Below are positions 3,226 to 64,000 of a DNA stretch of 64,000 bases, piece by piece. The notes beneath the pieces were generated by a model. The model made no database searches, was not told the origin of the DNA, and was given only the letters and a program-made list of their open reading frames with translations. Source of the DNA: Acholeplasmataceae bacterium (GTDB lineage Bacteria > Bacillota_I > Bacilli_A > Acholeplasmatales > Acholeplasmataceae). The translations under genes were made by a program, and so were the position numbers. Position 1 is the first letter of the stretch; each line of letters begins with the position of its first letter. The stretch covers positions 992,001 to 1,056,000 of the forward strand of contig OY775910.1 of assembly GCA_963675245.1 (NCBI GenBank), written 5' to 3'.

Positions 3226-3299
3226 TGGCAGGCCCAACAGGATTTGAACCTGTGGTGAGGGAGTCAAAGTCCCTTGCCTTACCCCTTGGCTATGGGCCT
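3226..3299 (-). tRNA. tRNA-Gln(TTG)
   Basis: Cloverleaf AGGCCCA...AGGGA-CTTTGAC-TCCCT...TTCAAAT...TGGGCCT-G-CCA. Confidence 0.95.
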
Positions 3300-5855: not shown

Positions 5856-5932
5856 TGGGGCGGCCGAAGGGAATCGAACCCTCGAATGTCGGGACCACAA
5901 CCCGATGCGTTAACCACTTCGCCACGGCCGCC
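5856..5932 (-). tRNA. tRNA-His(GTG)
   Basis: Cloverleaf with G-1, anticodon loop TTGTGGT, CCA end. Confidence 0.95.
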
Positions 5933-7196: not shown

Positions 7197-7271
7197 AGGG
7201 ATATGGTGTCAACGGTAGCACAGCGGTCTCCAAAACCGTTAGTTCGGGTTCGAATCCTGATATCCCTGCCA
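7197..7271 (+). tRNA. tRNA-Trp(CCA)
   Basis: AGGGATA...GCGGT-CTCCAAA-ACCGT...TTCGAAT...TATCCCT-G-CCA. Confidence 0.95.
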
Positions 7272-7281
7272 TATTATTATT

Positions 7282-7355
7282 AGGCCCATAGCCAAGTGGT
7301 AAGGCAGAAGGCTCTGAACCTTCCATCGCTGGTTCGAATCCAACTGGGCCTGCCA
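7282..7355 (+). tRNA. tRNA-Gln(CTG)
   Basis: AGGCCCA...GAAGG-CTCTGAA-CCTTC...TGGGCCT-G-CCA; one C.A mismatch in T-stem. Confidence 0.9.
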
Positions 7356-9036: not shown

Positions 9037-9121
9037 GCGGGTGTGGCGAAATTGGCATACGCACTAGACTTAGGATCTAGCGCCTCACGGCATGCAGGTT
9101 CAAGTCCTGTCACCCGCACCA
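9037..9121 (+). tRNA. tRNA-Leu(TAG)
   Basis: GCGGGTG...CTAGA-CTTAGGA-TCTAG, long variable arm, CACCCGC-A-CCA. Confidence 0.95.
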
Positions 9122-54911: not shown

Positions 54912-55110
54912 AAAATAAAAACGTCCCTAGATAAAATATCTAAGGACGATTAATCGCGGTACCACCTTAGTTCCAGATATATCTCTGGCCCTCAAACCGT
55001 TATAGCCGGTATACTGTTAGCTCCAAGGGTCCATTCATTAACAATAACATCGTTGGCTTACACTATCCCAACTCGCTTAACATGCTAGTTATTAATTACT
55101 TATTCCTTTT
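54912..55110 (-). promoter_or_regulatory. T-box riboswitch (Trp)
   Basis: Minus strand AAGGTGGTACCGCG (54968-54955), specifier TGG (55033-55031), CGTCC...GGACG-TTTTT terminator. Confidence 0.9.
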
Positions 55111-55136
55111 CTTTGCTTATATTCATTATAGTTTAA

Positions 55137-58856: not shown

Positions 58857-59867
58857 ATGGCTATTAAAGTAGCAATTAATGGGTTCGGCCGTATAGGTCG
58901 TCTCGCTTATCGTTTGATCTCAGATGATCCAACGTTTGATGTCGTTGCAGTAAACGACTTAACTGATGCAGAAACACTTGCATATTTATTGAAGTATGAT
59001 ACAGCACAAAGACCTTTCAGCAAAGAAGTAACTTTTGAAGGTAACGATTTAGTGGTTGCTGGTGACCGTTTAACGGTTTTATCAGAAAGAGATCCTAAAT
59101 TATTACCATGGAAAGAACTTGAAGTCGATGTTGTATTAGAATGTACTGGATTCTTTGCAAGTAAAGAAAAAGCGTCATGGCATTTAGAAGCAGGTGCTAA
59201 AAAAGTTGTTATTTCTGCACCAGCTGGTAGTGACGTTAAGACAGTCGTGTATAACGTTAATGATGATGTATTAAGTGCAGATGATGATATCGTAAGTGGT
59301 GCTTCATGTACAACAAACTGCCTTGCTCCATTATTGAAAGTATTAGATGATAACTTTGGTGTTAAAGGTGGATTCATGACAACTGTTCATGCTTACACTG
59401 CTGACCAATCACTTCAAGATCAACCACACAAAAAAGGCATTCTTTCTAGACGTGGTCGTGCAGCTGCTGAAAGTATTATTCCATCTTCAACTGGTGCTGC
59501 AAAAGCGATTGGCCTTGTATTACCTAACTTAAAAGGTAAATTAGATGGTACTGCTTTACGTGTACCAACAGTCACTGGTTCTATCGTTGACTTAACAGTA
59601 GAAGTTAAAAATCATACAGATTTAGAAGCGGTTGATAAAGCATTCAAAGCAGCAGCAAACGAAACATTAGCTTATGTCTTTGATCCAATCGTATCAAGTG
59701 ATGTTATCGGCACAAGATTTGGTTCATTATATGATGCACACACAACTCAAGTTGTTAACTATGATGATAGACAATTAGTTAAAGTTATGGGTTGGTATGA
59801 CAATGAAATGAGTTATACATCACAATTAATTCGCACAGTTCAAAAATTAGCAAGTTTGATTAAATAA
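58857..59867 (+). CDS. gap: Glyceraldehyde-3-phosphate dehydrogenase
   Basis: INGFGRIGR, ASCTTNCL, WYDNE. Confidence 0.97.
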   Translation: MAIKVAINGFGRIGRLAYRLISDDPTFDVVAVNDLTDAETLAYLLKYDTAQRPFSKEVTFEGNDLVVAGDRLTVLSERDPKLLPWKELEVDVVLECTGFFASKEKASWHLEAGAKKVVISAPAGSDVKTVVYNVNDDVLSADDDIVSGASCTTNCLAPLLKVLDDNFGVKGGFMTTVHAYTADQSLQDQPHKKGILSRRGRAAAESIIPSSTGAAKAIGLVLPNLKGKLDGTALRVPTVTGSIVDLTVEVKNHTDLEAVDKAFKAAANETLAYVFDPIVSSDVIGTRFGSLYDAHTTQVVNYDDRQLVKVMGWYDNEMSYTSQLIRTVQKLASLIK

Positions 59868-59919
59868 TGTAAAGAATTGGTAATTAAAATCCCCAAAAAC
59901 GGGATTTTTTACTTTTTCC

Positions 59920-59948
59920 TTGACATTGTAAGTTAAATCTACTAAAAT
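59920..59948 (+). promoter_or_regulatory. sigma-A promoter of riboswitch operon
   Basis: TTGACA-N17-TAAAAT. Confidence 0.75.
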
Positions 59949-59983: not shown

Positions 59984-60059
59984 AGATGTAAAGAGCAAAA
60001 CTAGAGGGATCTAGTGACGCAAAGCTATAGGGCCTAGACAAGGTAGCCAGTTGCCATTT
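59984..60059 (+). ncRNA. GEMM-I cyclic-dinucleotide riboswitch, A20 variant
   Basis: GCAAA-ACTAGA-GGGA-TCTAGT-GACGCAAAGCTATAGGGCCT...TAGCCAGTTGCC; P1 AGATG/CATTT. Confidence 0.9.
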
Positions 60060-60109
60060 AGAATTTTAAAAATGGTAATTTGACTCGGCTCTGATTAATC
60101 TCATTAAGC

Positions 60110-60144
60110 AAAGGTCAACATTACCAAGTTGACCTTTTTATTTT
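60110..60144 (+). terminator. Riboswitch-controlled terminator
   Basis: AAAGGTCAAC-ATTACCAA-GTTGACCTTTTTATTTT. Confidence 0.85.
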
Positions 60145-60171
60145 CAAATATTTTAGTAAGGGAGGCATGCC

Positions 60172-60759
60172 ATGAAATCACGTCGGAGTATACAGTACAT
60201 GGTTATTGTACTACTCGTGGCCGCATTAGGGTTTACATCATCAGCAGCAGTAGCATATTGGAATGATGTAAGAAATGTATCTAATGTTGTTATTAATTTC
60301 TCTGACGAAGAAGCAGAACTACTAATTGAACAGACAAGTGAAGACTTCACCGGAACATTAGTGCCTCATTATTATGATTTCTTTGAGGGGCAAACAGATG
60401 AAGCAATATTCACTTATACGGTTGCAGTAGATAAAACGCTTGTCAAAGAAGTTAAATTGATTGTAGAAGCAATCAACATTCAAATTGGGGGATCTGATCA
60501 GTATACTAACCTTGTACATATCAAGATCAACGAGAATGACATGTATCATGTGAATAATTTATTCAATTCAGAGGTGACGATCACGGTAGTTGTAACACTA
60601 GATGAACCGATTGATCAGCAAGAAGCTCTCGATAGAGGGTTAGATGAGAGTTTCGTTAATGTCACGGATTCAGTGGCTGCGTACGAGACCATAAAAGGTG
60701 AGGTTATAAGTTTCACACTCAGCTTTTTAGTAGAGCCAAAAGAAACTTCAGAAACATAA
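60172..60759 (+). CDS. Secreted protein with SipW-type signal peptide (TasA/CalY/TapA-like)
   Basis: ...SSAAVA/YWND...SNVVINF; beta-rich and acidic; GGGAGG RBS. Confidence 0.65.
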   Translation: MKSRRSIQYMVIVLLVAALGFTSSAAVAYWNDVRNVSNVVINFSDEEAELLIEQTSEDFTGTLVPHYYDFFEGQTDEAIFTYTVAVDKTLVKEVKLIVEAINIQIGGSDQYTNLVHIKINENDMYHVNNLFNSEVTITVVVTLDEPIDQQEALDRGLDESFVNVTDSVAAYETIKGEVISFTLSFLVEPKETSET

Positions 60760-60867: not shown

Positions 60868-61431
60868 ATGAAAAAAAGAAATTTAGTTATTGGTTTATTA
60901 GTTACTTTAGCGGTTGCATTAACAGGAGCAACATTTGCGTTTTGGGCAGGCGGCATTAGCAATGCAGATATAACAAATACAGGTACAATCACAATTGGGG
61001 ATGCTGATGCAGTAACTACTGCTGTGAGTACAAGTGACTATGTAGTTGCGGGTAGTTCATTAGTTCCAGTAGGTTATGAGGATGCTGGTGATAGTGAAGT
61101 TAGCAGTGTAGATTTAGAATTCGTCGTTATGTGGAATGGTACAGGTGCTGAAGGTGCGCTTGGTACACTTAACGTTACAGTAGATTCTGTTGTTATTAGT
61201 GGTGGTGCTTCAGATGGTCAAGAAGTTGAAGTTGGCGCAGCTAGTAGTTGGGATCTATTCACAGTTGATTTAAGTAATGTAACTGGTGTTGCAGTTGTTA
61301 ATGGTACTGCTACAGGCACACTTTTAATCACTGTTACATTTACAAATGAACCTGCTGATGCAGCTCAATATGCAGCAATTGCAACTAATAGTATTATCGT
61401 TACTTTAAGCTTTGACGTTACAGCTGCTTAA
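60868..61431 (+). CDS. Secreted TasA/CalY-like fibre subunit with SipW-type signal peptide
   Basis: MKKRNL...TGATFA/FWAG...NTGTITIG; ends IIVTLSFDVTAA. Confidence 0.7.
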   Translation: MKKRNLVIGLLVTLAVALTGATFAFWAGGISNADITNTGTITIGDADAVTTAVSTSDYVVAGSSLVPVGYEDAGDSEVSSVDLEFVVMWNGTGAEGALGTLNVTVDSVVISGGASDGQEVEVGAASSWDLFTVDLSNVTGVAVVNGTATGTLLITVTFTNEPADAAQYAAIATNSIIVTLSFDVTAA

Positions 61432-61500: not shown

Positions 61501-62793
61501 ATGGAAATAAGAATACTAAACTTAAAACAAATATCATCATTGATTATTCTTTTCATGCTATCTATGTTCCTCACAACATTTACTTATGCTACCTGGATCA
61601 CAGGAATCGAGGATGGCTTAGGTACAGGTTTAGGTACCATTTCCATTGGTGCATGGACACAAGAACCAGAAGGTATTGATGCTTATAGTCCTACAATTGG
61701 TTATAGTAGTGGTGCGCTTGTCTGGTTTGAAGGTGATTTCTGGATTTATAAAGGTAATTATTCGTTTGGATTAGACCCTTCAATTGCTAATGGATGGACA
61801 TATTTAAACGATCTTAATTGGTATTCAAATATCATTTATCAAGCAAACGAAGTCGTCTATACAAACGGTATTGTATTCCAAACTTCTGGATATACTGTTG
61901 GTGATAATCCACTTGATGGTGCACCGTGGAATAGCATGATGAATAATCAAGTACAGTGGATTACCGGTCAAGCAGTTACCTTAAATGAAATTGTATTTTA
62001 TAATGGTCAATTATGGATATATCACGATTATTATACGACGTCACAACCGGGGTCTAATTCTGGTTGGGGATTAGTTGGTGATTTAACCTATTCAAGTGGA
62101 TTTGTTTATAATACAGGTGATGTAGTTATATATAATGGTACGTATTACATTGCTACAGGATATGCAAAAAATAAGAGACCAGATAAGAATAATAGTCCAT
62201 TTAACGTTCTAAATACTCCAACTTGGTCAAGTAGTATTCCAAATGGTACGACGCATGTACTATATAATGGATTGCTTTATGAAGCACTTATTACTAACAT
62301 AACAACCCTACAAAATGTAGTACCAGGTAGTTCATCATCATATGGTGTGTGGTCTGCGATTAATACACAAACATGGCAACAATACAACACGTATTCATCA
62401 AACGATCTCATTATGTATAACACAGATGTTTTCATGCTTGTCAATGAAAGTAACTCTACAATTATACCGGGTACTGCTGGCAATTCATGGAATTTAATGA
62501 ATAATATGGAATATGATCCATACAGTACATATAGCAATGGCGATTTTGCAGTTGTAAATGGTATTGTTTACGAAGTTGTGAATGCGTCAAATGCGAATTT
62601 ATATGCACCTGAAGTTGCTGCGAATTCATGGAATCGTTTAAGTGGTTATGATTGGTATTGGTTTAACAATTATGACGTTGGTGATATTTTATTCCATGGT
62701 AATGGCGTATATATTGCATTAGCAGCTTCAACCAATATTGAACCAGGTACCTCAGGTTCAGATTCATATTGGAGTTTATACAACGAAAACTAA
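61501..62793 (+). CDS. Secreted adhesin with eight CBM5/12-like (chitin-binding) repeats and SipW-type signal peptide
   Basis: TFTYA/TW...GTISIG; repeated (W/Y)....Y..GD.V.YNG..Y.A...P....W units. Confidence 0.75.
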   Translation: MEIRILNLKQISSLIILFMLSMFLTTFTYATWITGIEDGLGTGLGTISIGAWTQEPEGIDAYSPTIGYSSGALVWFEGDFWIYKGNYSFGLDPSIANGWTYLNDLNWYSNIIYQANEVVYTNGIVFQTSGYTVGDNPLDGAPWNSMMNNQVQWITGQAVTLNEIVFYNGQLWIYHDYYTTSQPGSNSGWGLVGDLTYSSGFVYNTGDVVIYNGTYYIATGYAKNKRPDKNNSPFNVLNTPTWSSSIPNGTTHVLYNGLLYEALITNITTLQNVVPGSSSSYGVWSAINTQTWQQYNTYSSNDLIMYNTDVFMLVNESNSTIIPGTAGNSWNLMNNMEYDPYSTYSNGDFAVVNGIVYEVVNASNANLYAPEVAANSWNRLSGYDWYWFNNYDVGDILFHGNGVYIALAASTNIEPGTSGSDSYWSLYNEN

Positions 62794-62885: not shown

Positions 62886-63452
62886 GTGAAAAGAAGAAAA
62901 AGCAAAAAAACCAGAGTAATTTTACTATCTGGAATCTACAGTTTAATAGGTATATTAGTATTACTGATTGTATTGCTTGCAGCAGCACCTAGTTTTATGC
63001 TCAATACGCTTGGTTTTAGAACATATGTTTCACACTATGATCAAATGGCACCAACGATTGAATCTAACTCACTCGTGTTTATCACGCAAGTTGATTTAAT
63101 GAATATTGAAAGCAATGATTTAATCACATTCCAATCTAATACAGATTTAAATGATGATGGTCGGAATGATTTGATCACTGGTTATTTTGATCGTACGAAC
63201 GGTACAGGAGATGCTGCTGATTATTATTTCAGAAGTGAAGGTTCCGTAGGAGATTGGGCAGTTATTCAATCAGGTAATATAATTGGTGGTTATGGATTCA
63301 GCATCCCTATATTGGGATTAATTATTGATTTTATTGGTAGTCCATTTGGCATTGCAGTTGTTTGTGTAAATATTGCCATCATTTCAGGCATTGTGTTTAT
63401 AGTGAAACAAGGTAGTAAAAAAGAACCAAAAGAAACACAAAAAGAACAGTAA
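62886..63452 (+). CDS. SipW/Sec11-like signal peptidase homologue lacking catalytic residues
   Basis: GFRTYVSHYDQMAPTIESNSLV...NDLITF...NIIGGYGFSIPILG...SPFG follows SipW layout. Confidence 0.75.
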   Translation: MKRRKSKKTRVILLSGIYSLIGILVLLIVLLAAAPSFMLNTLGFRTYVSHYDQMAPTIESNSLVFITQVDLMNIESNDLITFQSNTDLNDDGRNDLITGYFDRTNGTGDAADYYFRSEGSVGDWAVIQSGNIIGGYGFSIPILGLIIDFIGSPFGIAVVCVNIAIISGIVFIVKQGSKKEPKETQKEQ

Positions 63453-63460
63453 GAGAGATT

Positions 63461-64000
63461 ATGAATCAAAGATTATTAACAACAGATGAATTACTTGATC
63501 AGTTAAAGGAGTCTCTTAGTGATTCCTATCAAACGCAATTAATACATCACAAACATAAAAAAATACAGTATTATATATTTTGGGGCATTGTAGCTATTGC
63601 AGTGCTTCATTTGTTATTGGTTTCATTACCGCTTATGATAGGTGTAAAAAATACAGTGAATGTTATCGGTCAAGCAAGAGTAGTTGGGATCCCTTATGTT
63701 CCTGGAGAAGTTCTTGAACGAGAAGGTCATACGATTGTTTTAAATCGATATGATGTGAGCAACATAGCAATTGATGACCATGTTGTGATCTATGGTATAT
63801 TAGATACAACATATTATTGGGATGTTATCATTACTGATTTCGATGTGAGTCAAGAAATTGTGAGTGTATCATACGATGGTTTGTATTCACTTGATTATTC
63901 GTTTAATGATATTCAAGGTGTTTATGTAAGAGATGCAAACTTCATGGGTATCATTATGTTTGTTTCTTCAAGAATTACAGGATTGATCACAACACTAGTT
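63461..64000 (+). CDS. Membrane protein, possibly second divergent SipW-like protein; 3'-truncated by window edge
   Basis: Open from ATG 63461 to end: MNQRLL...TM...DVSNIAIDDHVVIYG...DIQGVYVRDANFMGIIMFV. Confidence 0.6.
   Translation, partial: MNQRLLTTDELLDQLKESLSDSYQTQLIHHKHKKIQYYIFWGIVAIAVLHLLLVSLPLMIGVKNTVNVIGQARVVGIPYVPGEVLEREGHTIVLNRYDVSNIAIDDHVVIYGILDTTYYWDVIITDFDVSQEIVSVSYDGLYSLDYSFNDIQGVYVRDANFMGIIMFVSSRITGLITTLV

Follow-up and report, generated by a model that had tools for sequence, protein, structure and literature searches.

The closest described relatives of the RNA reported here are GEMM-I riboswitch aptamers with an adenine at position 20 (numbering of the Vibrio aptamer Vc2), where canonical members have a guanine that reads one guanine of c-di-GMP (cyclic diguanosine monophosphate). 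Cbe 1-2, a natural A20 RNA of Clostridium beijerinckii with a stably protonated adenine, binds c-di-GMP at 30 nM and 3',3'-cGAMP (cyclic GMP-AMP, hereafter cGAMP) at 463 nM, and the Vc2 G20A mutant binds the two at 53 nM and 120 nM, respectively (PMC6140456). The Geobacter RNA Gs1761 is selective for cGAMP (0.53 nM vs 660 nM), and in the same paper, where Keller et al. 2018 speak of 'widespread bispecific binding behavior', only Geobacter RNAs are strongly selective (PMC6140456). Here we describe an A20 GEMM-I aptamer at positions 59984-60059 of a 64,000-nucleotide stretch of an Acholeplasmataceae genome (assembly GCA_963675245.1, contig OY775910.1, positions 992,001 to 1,056,000; this whole stretch is referred to as the window). 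A first-pass annotation had proposed that the organism may use cGAMP to control adhesion through this element. We consider it likely that the RNA is a transcriptional ON switch in the leader of an independently transcribed Acholeplasmataceae operon, and that it most likely reads c-di-GMP.

A search of the window with the Rfam model RF01051 (c-di-GMP-I) in Infernal, which the first-pass annotation had suggested as a check, matched 59984-60058 on the forward strand over the full-length model (positions 1-87) with 58.1 bits, the gathering score being 35, and with an E-value of 9e-9 across the window. Elsewhere in the window, Rfam models identified a T-box leader at 54939-55122 on the reverse strand (99 bits, gathering score 93) and five tRNA genes, at 3229-3299, 5859-5931, 7197-7268, 7282-7352 and 9037-9118. 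The ligand-reading bases had been given as written in the DNA: from 59988 onward the sequence runs G59988-T-A-A-A-G59993-A59994-G-C-A-A-A, with a C at 60054. In the covariance-model alignment, A59994 falls on model position 11, where the consensus is a G that lies next to the paired G12-C13 on its 5' side and corresponds to G20 of Vc2. The alternative register with G59993 at position 20 fails, since G59993 falls on model position 10, equivalent to Vc2 position 19. In Vc2 the G14-C93 pair closes the helix P1 under the ligand (PMC3764141); G59988 pairs with C60055 as G14 does with C93, so that C60054, directly 5' of C60055, is the C92 equivalent and is kept, as claimed. Position 47 is A60021, and P1 pairs 59984-59988 with 60055-60059 as read from the bases. 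Against our own covariance model (R1) the aptamer scores 87.5 bits. Among 43 orthologous aptamers aligned to R1, an alignment fitted to the model, 98.8% of cells are paired, compared with 11-45% in slid controls, and compensatory changes on both sides were observed in 7 of the 17 pairs. The junction motifs GCAAA, GACGCAAAGC (which holds the A47 equivalent) and AGCC are invariant in alignment A1. With a score above the gathering score, a two-helix architecture with covariation and an expression platform coupled to the aptamer 3' strand, the RNA is a GEMM-I aptamer with A at position 20 and C92 kept. Our comparative set comprised 61 related genomes, including a genus subset of ten species. At the orthologous locus, defined by a conserved gene for a 195-amino-acid (aa) protein behind the aptamer (50-79% identity), A20/C92 is found in eight of the ten species of the genus and G20/C92 in the other two.

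The combination of A20 with C92 (A59994, C60054) is that of the Geobacter GEMM-Ib class, and to this extent the statement that A20 marks GEMM-Ib holds; as a marker of the ligand it falls short, for natural and engineered A20 RNAs bind c-di-GMP in the range of tens of nM. The warning that selectivity does not follow from A20 by itself was right, Vc2 G20A and Cbe 1-2 both being bispecific (PMC6140456), and the base on its own calls for caution against annotating cGAMP signalling from it. Read plainly, if that reading is right, the finding adds little: A20 GEMM-I aptamers outside Geobacter were already known and are mostly bispecific, and the genome has a normal set of c-di-GMP enzymes.

By comparison of bases and context, the RNA appears to resemble Cbe 1-2 and Vc2 G20A more than Gs1761. 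Like Cbe 1-2 (Nelson et al. 2015; Keller et al. 2018, PMC6140456), it is a natural A20 GEMM-I aptamer of a low-G+C Gram-positive lineage outside Geobacter, with the difference that Cbe 1-2 has measured affinities, another host and other regulated genes. With Vc2 G20A (PDB 3MUM, 4YB1; PMC6140456) it shares its one base change, the rest of the GEMM-I pocket being canonical, but Vc2 G20A is engineered and bispecific, while this RNA is natural and kept in most of its genus. The likeness to Geobacter GEMM-Ib (Gs1761; pgcA and omcAHG leaders; PMC6456294, PMC6140456) extends to A20 and C92, to extracellular or surface proteins encoded downstream and, as we infer for the present locus, to a terminator-based ON switch. 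The contact list available for Gs1761 gives U13-A14-C15 (PMC7288161), against G-A-G in this RNA, and Geobacter has the Hypr GGDEF enzyme GacA (Ser348), whereas the present genome has only Asp-type GGDEF domains. Among the papers listed by a literature search on Acholeplasma together with c-di-GMP riboswitches none mentions Acholeplasma, which is not proof that nothing is in print.

The host is a small relative of the Firmicutes that lacks a cell wall. Sequencing runs found to contain this DNA numbered four, from a single study, and none of RNA was listed. The host genome, a single contig of 1,626,300 bases with 33.9% G+C, has 10 GGDEF and 6 EAL matches. An intact GG[DE]EF motif is present in five of the 10 GGDEF matches, all of which read ND..GH..GD with the final D aligned to PleD D344; the other five are degenerate. 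Hypr enzymes are recognised by Ser or Thr at GacA position 348 in addition to the GGDEF motif (PMC6456294, PMC7288161). A search for enzymes of this type, as proposed in the first-pass annotation, found none in the genome, all five intact domains carrying Asp at the PleD-D344 position. The variant pattern ND..GH..G[Ser/Thr/Cys...], which sees only domains with an ND..GH..G motif, occurred in none of the ten genus genomes. The proposed search for HD-GYP proteins gave no HD_5 (PF13487) match, HD_5 being the one HD family searched, in this 99.96% complete genome. Neither the housekeeping Hypr GGDEF nor the cGAMP-specific HD-GYP (HD_5) of a GEMM-Ib genome was thus found. In another family of the same order, two genomes (G037 and G041) encode a GGDEF membrane protein with an intact VGGDEF and a Cys at the PleD-D344/GacA-S348 position (NDKYGH[H/R]YGC; L190 772-1854 and L191 772-1854, respectively). 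These two genomes hold three of the five A20 aptamers found outside the genus; as they belong to one genus, the Cys variant counts as one event.

The remaining enzyme class to be considered, the cGAS/DncV-like nucleotidyltransferases (CD-NTases), is represented by a single protein outside the window (PADLOC cyclase E 6e-22; Pfam DncV-like_NTFase 31.1 bits, cut-off 24.9), in an operon resembling a cyclic oligonucleotide-based antiphage signalling system (CBASS):

C1:851432-854800 (locus L023, outside the window): CBASS type II-like operon encoding a 306-aa CD-NTase, an E1-E2/ThiF protein, a JAB-like protein and a membrane protein

At this locus, the only one with a CD-NTase, the CD-NTase gene is followed by E1/E2 (Cap2-like) and JAB (Cap3-like) genes, as in type II CBASS. 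The E1-E2 protein is matched by PADLOC (E 6e-18) and Pfam (ThiF, 42.4 bits), and the JAB-like (HSHP..S..D) and effector/membrane genes were read from motifs only. A transposase-like gene lies near the operon, at 845634-846794. A query with the CD-NTase protein found it in one of the ten genus genomes. Among the 61 related genomes, SMODS was found in 3 and a DncV-like NTase in 4 (this genome, G000, and G001, G008 and G051). No CD-NTase match was obtained in six of the eight species with A20 at the locus, and one of the two G20 species has one. The search for CD-NTase genes proposed in the first-pass annotation thus yielded one in this genome, in a CBASS-like setting, and matches in only 4 of 61 related genomes.

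A canonical enzyme set, CD-NTases that are sporadic and lie in a defence context, the missing HD-GYP and the two sister species with a canonical aptamer together make a c-di-GMP ON switch the simplest reading, and c-di-GMP most likely the physiological ligand. The five canonical GGDEF cyclases would make c-di-GMP and the EAL phosphodiesterases would degrade it. A20 would read the alpha guanine through a protonated adenine, as in other A20 RNAs. Such an aptamer would have a lower affinity for c-di-GMP than a G20 aptamer and would probably also accept 3',3'-cGAMP in vitro. A GEMM-Ib-like riboswitch dedicated to 3',3'-cGAMP, in which A20 would meet the adenine and C92 the guanine of a housekeeping signal made in Acholeplasmataceae by an unrecognised synthase, would account for the joint presence of A20 and C92 and for the retention of A20 in eight of ten species, and the strong selectivity of Gs1761 (PMC6140456) gives it a precedent. 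We consider it quite unlikely, given that all five intact GGDEF domains carry Asp, that HD_5 is not matched, that CD-NTases are confined to sporadic CBASS contexts and that in two sister species this operon stands behind a canonical G20/C92 aptamer. The idea that the organism uses cGAMP to control adhesion is, on the same grounds, unsupported, though not refuted.

The CBASS operon also raises the possibility of a physiologically bispecific sensor, with c-di-GMP as the normal input and cGAMP from the CD-NTase also switching the operon on during phage attack. A20 aptamers do bind both ligands in vitro (PMC6140456), and the genome does have a CD-NTase. The cross-talk is, however, purely conjectural. 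Since the CBASS operon was found in one of ten genus genomes whereas A20 is present in eight species, the riboswitch did not evolve with CBASS, and we regard this possibility as highly improbable.

We next consider positions 20 and 92 beyond this locus. RF01051 matches were found in 41 of the 61 related genomes and in all ten of the genus; the present genome has six aptamers, G20 and A20 occurring in three each, and three of the six stand in tandem. At a second locus, preceding the gene of a 218-aa protein, the aptamer is G/C at positions 20/92 in seven and A/C in two of the nine species typed, the tenth being unclassified as its downstream open reading frame (ORF) is cut short. G and A at position 20 interchange at a third riboswitch locus of the genus too. 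Outside the genus, the aptamers orthologous to the one in the window are G20/U92 in all 34 species. A tree of the downstream protein, built by a quick method from 44 rows, places the genus within G/U lineages; it requires a single change from U92 to C92, at the base of the genus, and three changes at position 20. Across the order, 144 of 147 Rfam matches were counted, leaving out one on contig 24 of G060, a partial sub-threshold match on contig 72 of G035 and one overlapping copy in G015 that R1 missed. The pairs at positions 20/92 were G/C in 75, G/U in 47, A/C in 20 and C/C in 2 aptamers, and A/U in none (Fisher's test for A or G vs C or U, 2e-4, uncorrected for relatedness). U92 is therefore present in 47 of 144 aptamers and always together with G20, in a register that assumes the G14-C93 pair; a bulged-U shift would be possible from the bases.

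C20/C92 was observed in two near-identical aptamers, L129 (G047) and L140 (G057), which read ..AATCGCAAA.. at this site. We know of no ligand assignment for C20/C92 aptamers.

The state of the two positions is locus-specific and stable, with U92 in 34 of 34 species outside the genus and A20 in eight of ten within it, and this stability suggests selection on the changes at the variant bases, for which the most economical account would be a c-di-GMP threshold that differs from operon to operon. Were A20 instead a neutral polymorphism of an ordinary c-di-GMP switch without any role in tuning, G/C, G/U and A/C would form a neutral network connected by single transitions. Every change is indeed a transition, three orthologous loci of a single genus show both G and A, and G20 and C92 are less conserved than A47 (PMC9049102, citing Smith et al. 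2010). Free drift should, however, mix the states within a locus, and this is hard to reconcile with the uniform G/U outside the genus or with the bias towards A/C at the present locus (eight of ten species) and towards G/C at the 218-aa locus (seven against two of nine typed), so that we hold neutrality to be unlikely. The abstract of the 2010 study by Smith et al. reportedly states that many mutants keep biologically relevant affinity.

The order-wide counts also speak to a second ligand. The variants change one of the two readers and never both (A/U in none of 144 aptamers), and the swap by which A/C replaced G/U at the base of the genus joins two states each of which formally complements one A plus one G, provided that cGAMP can bind either way round. 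Both facts suit a dedicated cGAMP riboswitch, although the absence of A/U is equally expected for c-di-GMP: the G20A/C92U double mutant lowers the affinity for c-di-GMP from 0.011 nM to 4.9 uM (PMC9049102), and the missing combination is thereby explained if all these RNAs read c-di-GMP. In a wider form, aptamers with a single altered reader (A20/C92 or G20/U92) would respond to a dinucleotide with one A and one G, for instance 3',3'-cGAMP, in either orientation, as part of a second cyclic-dinucleotide circuit whose synthase lacks the known signatures. The swap that marks the genus, the lack of any A/U among 144 aptamers and U92 in 34 of 34 species outside the genus would fit such a circuit, which we nevertheless judge very unlikely. 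Locus stability and the formal complementarity to one A plus one G keep the general notion of a second ligand alive at a low level, as an outside chance. The order-wide pattern at positions 20 and 92 is new and, together with the Cys-variant GGDEF, is a lead worth following: it offers a natural series in which to ask whether single reader changes set c-di-GMP thresholds for each operon or mark a second ligand. Among the known outputs of c-di-GMP signalling in these small genomes of wall-less bacteria, c-di-GMP riboswitches seem to be the main one.

Outside the window, three complete GEMM-I aptamers stand in tandem at C1:1397816-1398143 (locus L002 1501-1829), with G/C, A/C and A/C at positions 20/92; the array precedes the gene of a 253-aa protein and directly follows two GGDEF-EAL genes. 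The tandem locus is present in all ten genus genomes, with two to four aptamers in varying 20/92 states, for example G/U,G/U,G/U or G/U,G/U,G/C,G/C. These arrays resemble the triple-tandem c-di-GMP riboswitch Bc3-5 of Bacillus thuringiensis (PMC4759541) in that several complete GEMM-I units follow one another ahead of a surface-protein gene, and differ from it in that the members of the Acholeplasmataceae arrays vary at positions 20 and 92.

How the favoured c-di-GMP switch would act is suggested by the layout of the leader, all features of which lie on the forward strand:

58857-59867 (+): glyceraldehyde-3-phosphate dehydrogenase (gapdh) gene, upstream and outside the riboswitch unit (Pfam Gp_dh_N E 2e-36, Gp_dh_C E 1e-54)
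59886-59908 (+): terminator-like hairpin ending the gapdh transcript (consensus scan: 8-base-pair stem, then a T run)
59920-59948 (+): promoter-like site TTGACA, 17-nucleotide spacer, TAAAAT (11 of 12 consensus matches; a consensus match only)
59984-60059 (+): GEMM-I (c-di-GMP-I) aptamer (Rfam RF01051, covariance model R1, pair counts in 43 orthologues)
60049-60080 (+): anti-aptamer hairpin, 60049-60059 with 60070-60080, 11 base pairs (minimum-free-energy (MFE) and centroid folds)
60073-60126 (+): antiterminator, 60073-60085 with 60113-60126, 13 base pairs, C60119 bulged (MFE fold of 60060-60127; duplexfold -14.1 kcal/mol)
60110-60145 (+): intrinsic terminator, 10-base-pair stem of 60110-60119 with 60128-60137 and a T-rich tail (consensus scan, folds)
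60160-60165 (+): ribosome-binding site GGGAGG before the first gene

The hairpin at 59886-59908 sets the riboswitch unit apart from the upstream gapdh gene, and several orthologous leaders have TTGACA/TATAAT-like boxes at the place equivalent to the promoter-like site. The anti-aptamer hairpin competes with P2 and P1 and is incompatible with a folded aptamer, and the 5' strand of the antiterminator overlaps it. For a transcript ending at 60127, the antiterminator is the MFE structure (-16.4 kcal/mol) if the aptamer 3' strand is withheld from folding. If the strand is left free, the first structure to form is the anti-aptamer hairpin, followed by the terminator (-25.3 kcal/mol at full length). 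The intrinsic terminator is kept in ten of ten orthologous leaders. In nine of these leaders (the tenth, from G003, was mis-parsed and left out of the count) a middle segment has two alternative partners, the aptamer 3' strand (-7.1 to -11.2 kcal/mol) and the terminator 5' arm (-12.0 to -16.2 kcal/mol). The two alternative pairing sites overlap by 9-14 nucleotides, despite two different sequence designs.

These folds suggest a transcriptional ON switch for the downstream operon. Without ligand, the aptamer 3' strand (60049-60059) would pair with 60070-60080 and sequester the antiterminator strand, so that the terminator (60110-60137) would form. With ligand, P1 and P2 would hold the aptamer 3' strand, leaving 60073-60085 available for pairing with 60113-60126 in the terminator (its 5' arm and loop), and the polymerase would read into the operon.

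Several points weigh against a c-di-GMP ON switch. The cGAMP-selective Geobacter class has this very combination of A20 with C92, and the genome holds one CD-NTase. The distribution of states (A20 in eight of ten genus species, G20/U92 in 34 of 34 outside) is not that of free drift and would suit a distinct ligand no less than threshold tuning. As regards the mechanism, a full-length thermodynamic fold in which P1 alone is forced still contains the terminator, and the full-length terminator and antiterminator folds are only 0.5 kcal/mol apart; the antiterminator appears only once transcript length is taken into account, and the ON direction thus rests on a kinetic argument. The aptamer identity, the bases at positions 20 and 92, the alternative pairings, the enzyme inventory and the comparative pattern are observed, whereas the ligand, the ON direction, the tuning of thresholds and the function of the products are inferred.

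The operon behind the leader runs past the end of the window:

60172-60759 (+): first gene, 195 aa, signal peptide ending ...GFTSSAAVAYW followed by a beta-sandwich domain (ORF list)
60868-61431 (+): second gene, 187 aa, signal peptide with ...ATFAFWAGG (ORF list)
61501-62793 (+): third gene, 430 aa, carbohydrate-binding module 5/12 (Pfam CBM_5_12 40.1 bits, cut-off 26.2)
62886-63452 (+): fourth gene, 188 aa, weak, sub-cut-off similarity to SipW / archaeal-type signal peptidase I (NCBIfam)
63461-64000 (+): fifth gene, running off the window, 214 aa in the genome (ORF lists)

In Bacillus operons of the tapA-sipW-tasA type, the gene of a SipW-type signal peptidase accompanies those of secreted proteins that have an aromatic motif at the end of the signal peptide. 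The present operon is similar in placing a SipW-type peptidase beside secreted proteins with aromatic-ending signal peptides, and in this genome each of the four riboswitch-controlled loci begins with a signal peptide that has an aromatic A[YF]W or AWF motif at its end. The 188-aa protein scores 32.4 bits with NF046067 (cut-off 190) and 28.6 bits with TIGR02228 (cut-off 51.85). It reads ..YDQMAPTIE.. (62886-63452) where signal peptidases have S-M-x-P, and judging from these residues it may lack the catalytic Ser. After the fifth gene, outside the window, lies the gene of a 249-aa signal peptidase I with SGSMEP, whose N-terminal 90 aa score 44.3 bits with TIGR02228 and 38 bits with SipW.

The 195-aa and 187-aa proteins have no Pfam or NCBIfam match, and the products of all four riboswitch loci have no NCBIfam match, the Pfam scan having covered the window products of 195 and 187 aa. 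Homologues of the 195-aa protein were found at 45 Acholeplasmataceae/Mycoplasmatota loci, under the names Acholeplasmataceae, Mycoplasmatota, Tenericutes, Mariniplasma and Peloplasma, with the riboswitch upstream at 43 of the 45. Its structural model consists of a signal helix and a beta-sandwich (predicted local distance difference test, pLDDT, 71). Fold matches are weak: a PapG pilin domain (Z 7.2), RbmA (Z 6.6) and, in a likeness to TasA, the TasA fibre 8aur (Z 6.2). The best Z in a wide VIA-align search was 7.4, a value common among unrelated sandwiches. Foldseek found no match in the PDB at E <= 0.001, its best hits being a CLIPPER adhesin domain (3.3e-3) and the TasA fibre (3.9e-3). We assigned the 195-aa protein to no fold family, and the match to the TasA fibre falls within the range of unrelated beta-sandwiches. 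In this respect, in the lack of a sequence-family match and in the regulation by a riboswitch, the operon differs from the Bacillus tapA-sipW-tasA type.

Secreted proteins with SipW-class signals, a CBM5/12 protein and SipW-like signal peptidases in one operon point to a surface or matrix function that would be switched on at high c-di-GMP. Adhesion, the role named in the first-pass annotation, is a plausible guess, but what can be said of the first gene product is only that it has a signal peptide and a generic beta-sandwich fold. In one member of the genus (L149 1501-2079), the orthologue of the 195-aa protein has an in-frame stop that leaves an ORF of 144 aa, and the A20 riboswitch in front of it is intact.

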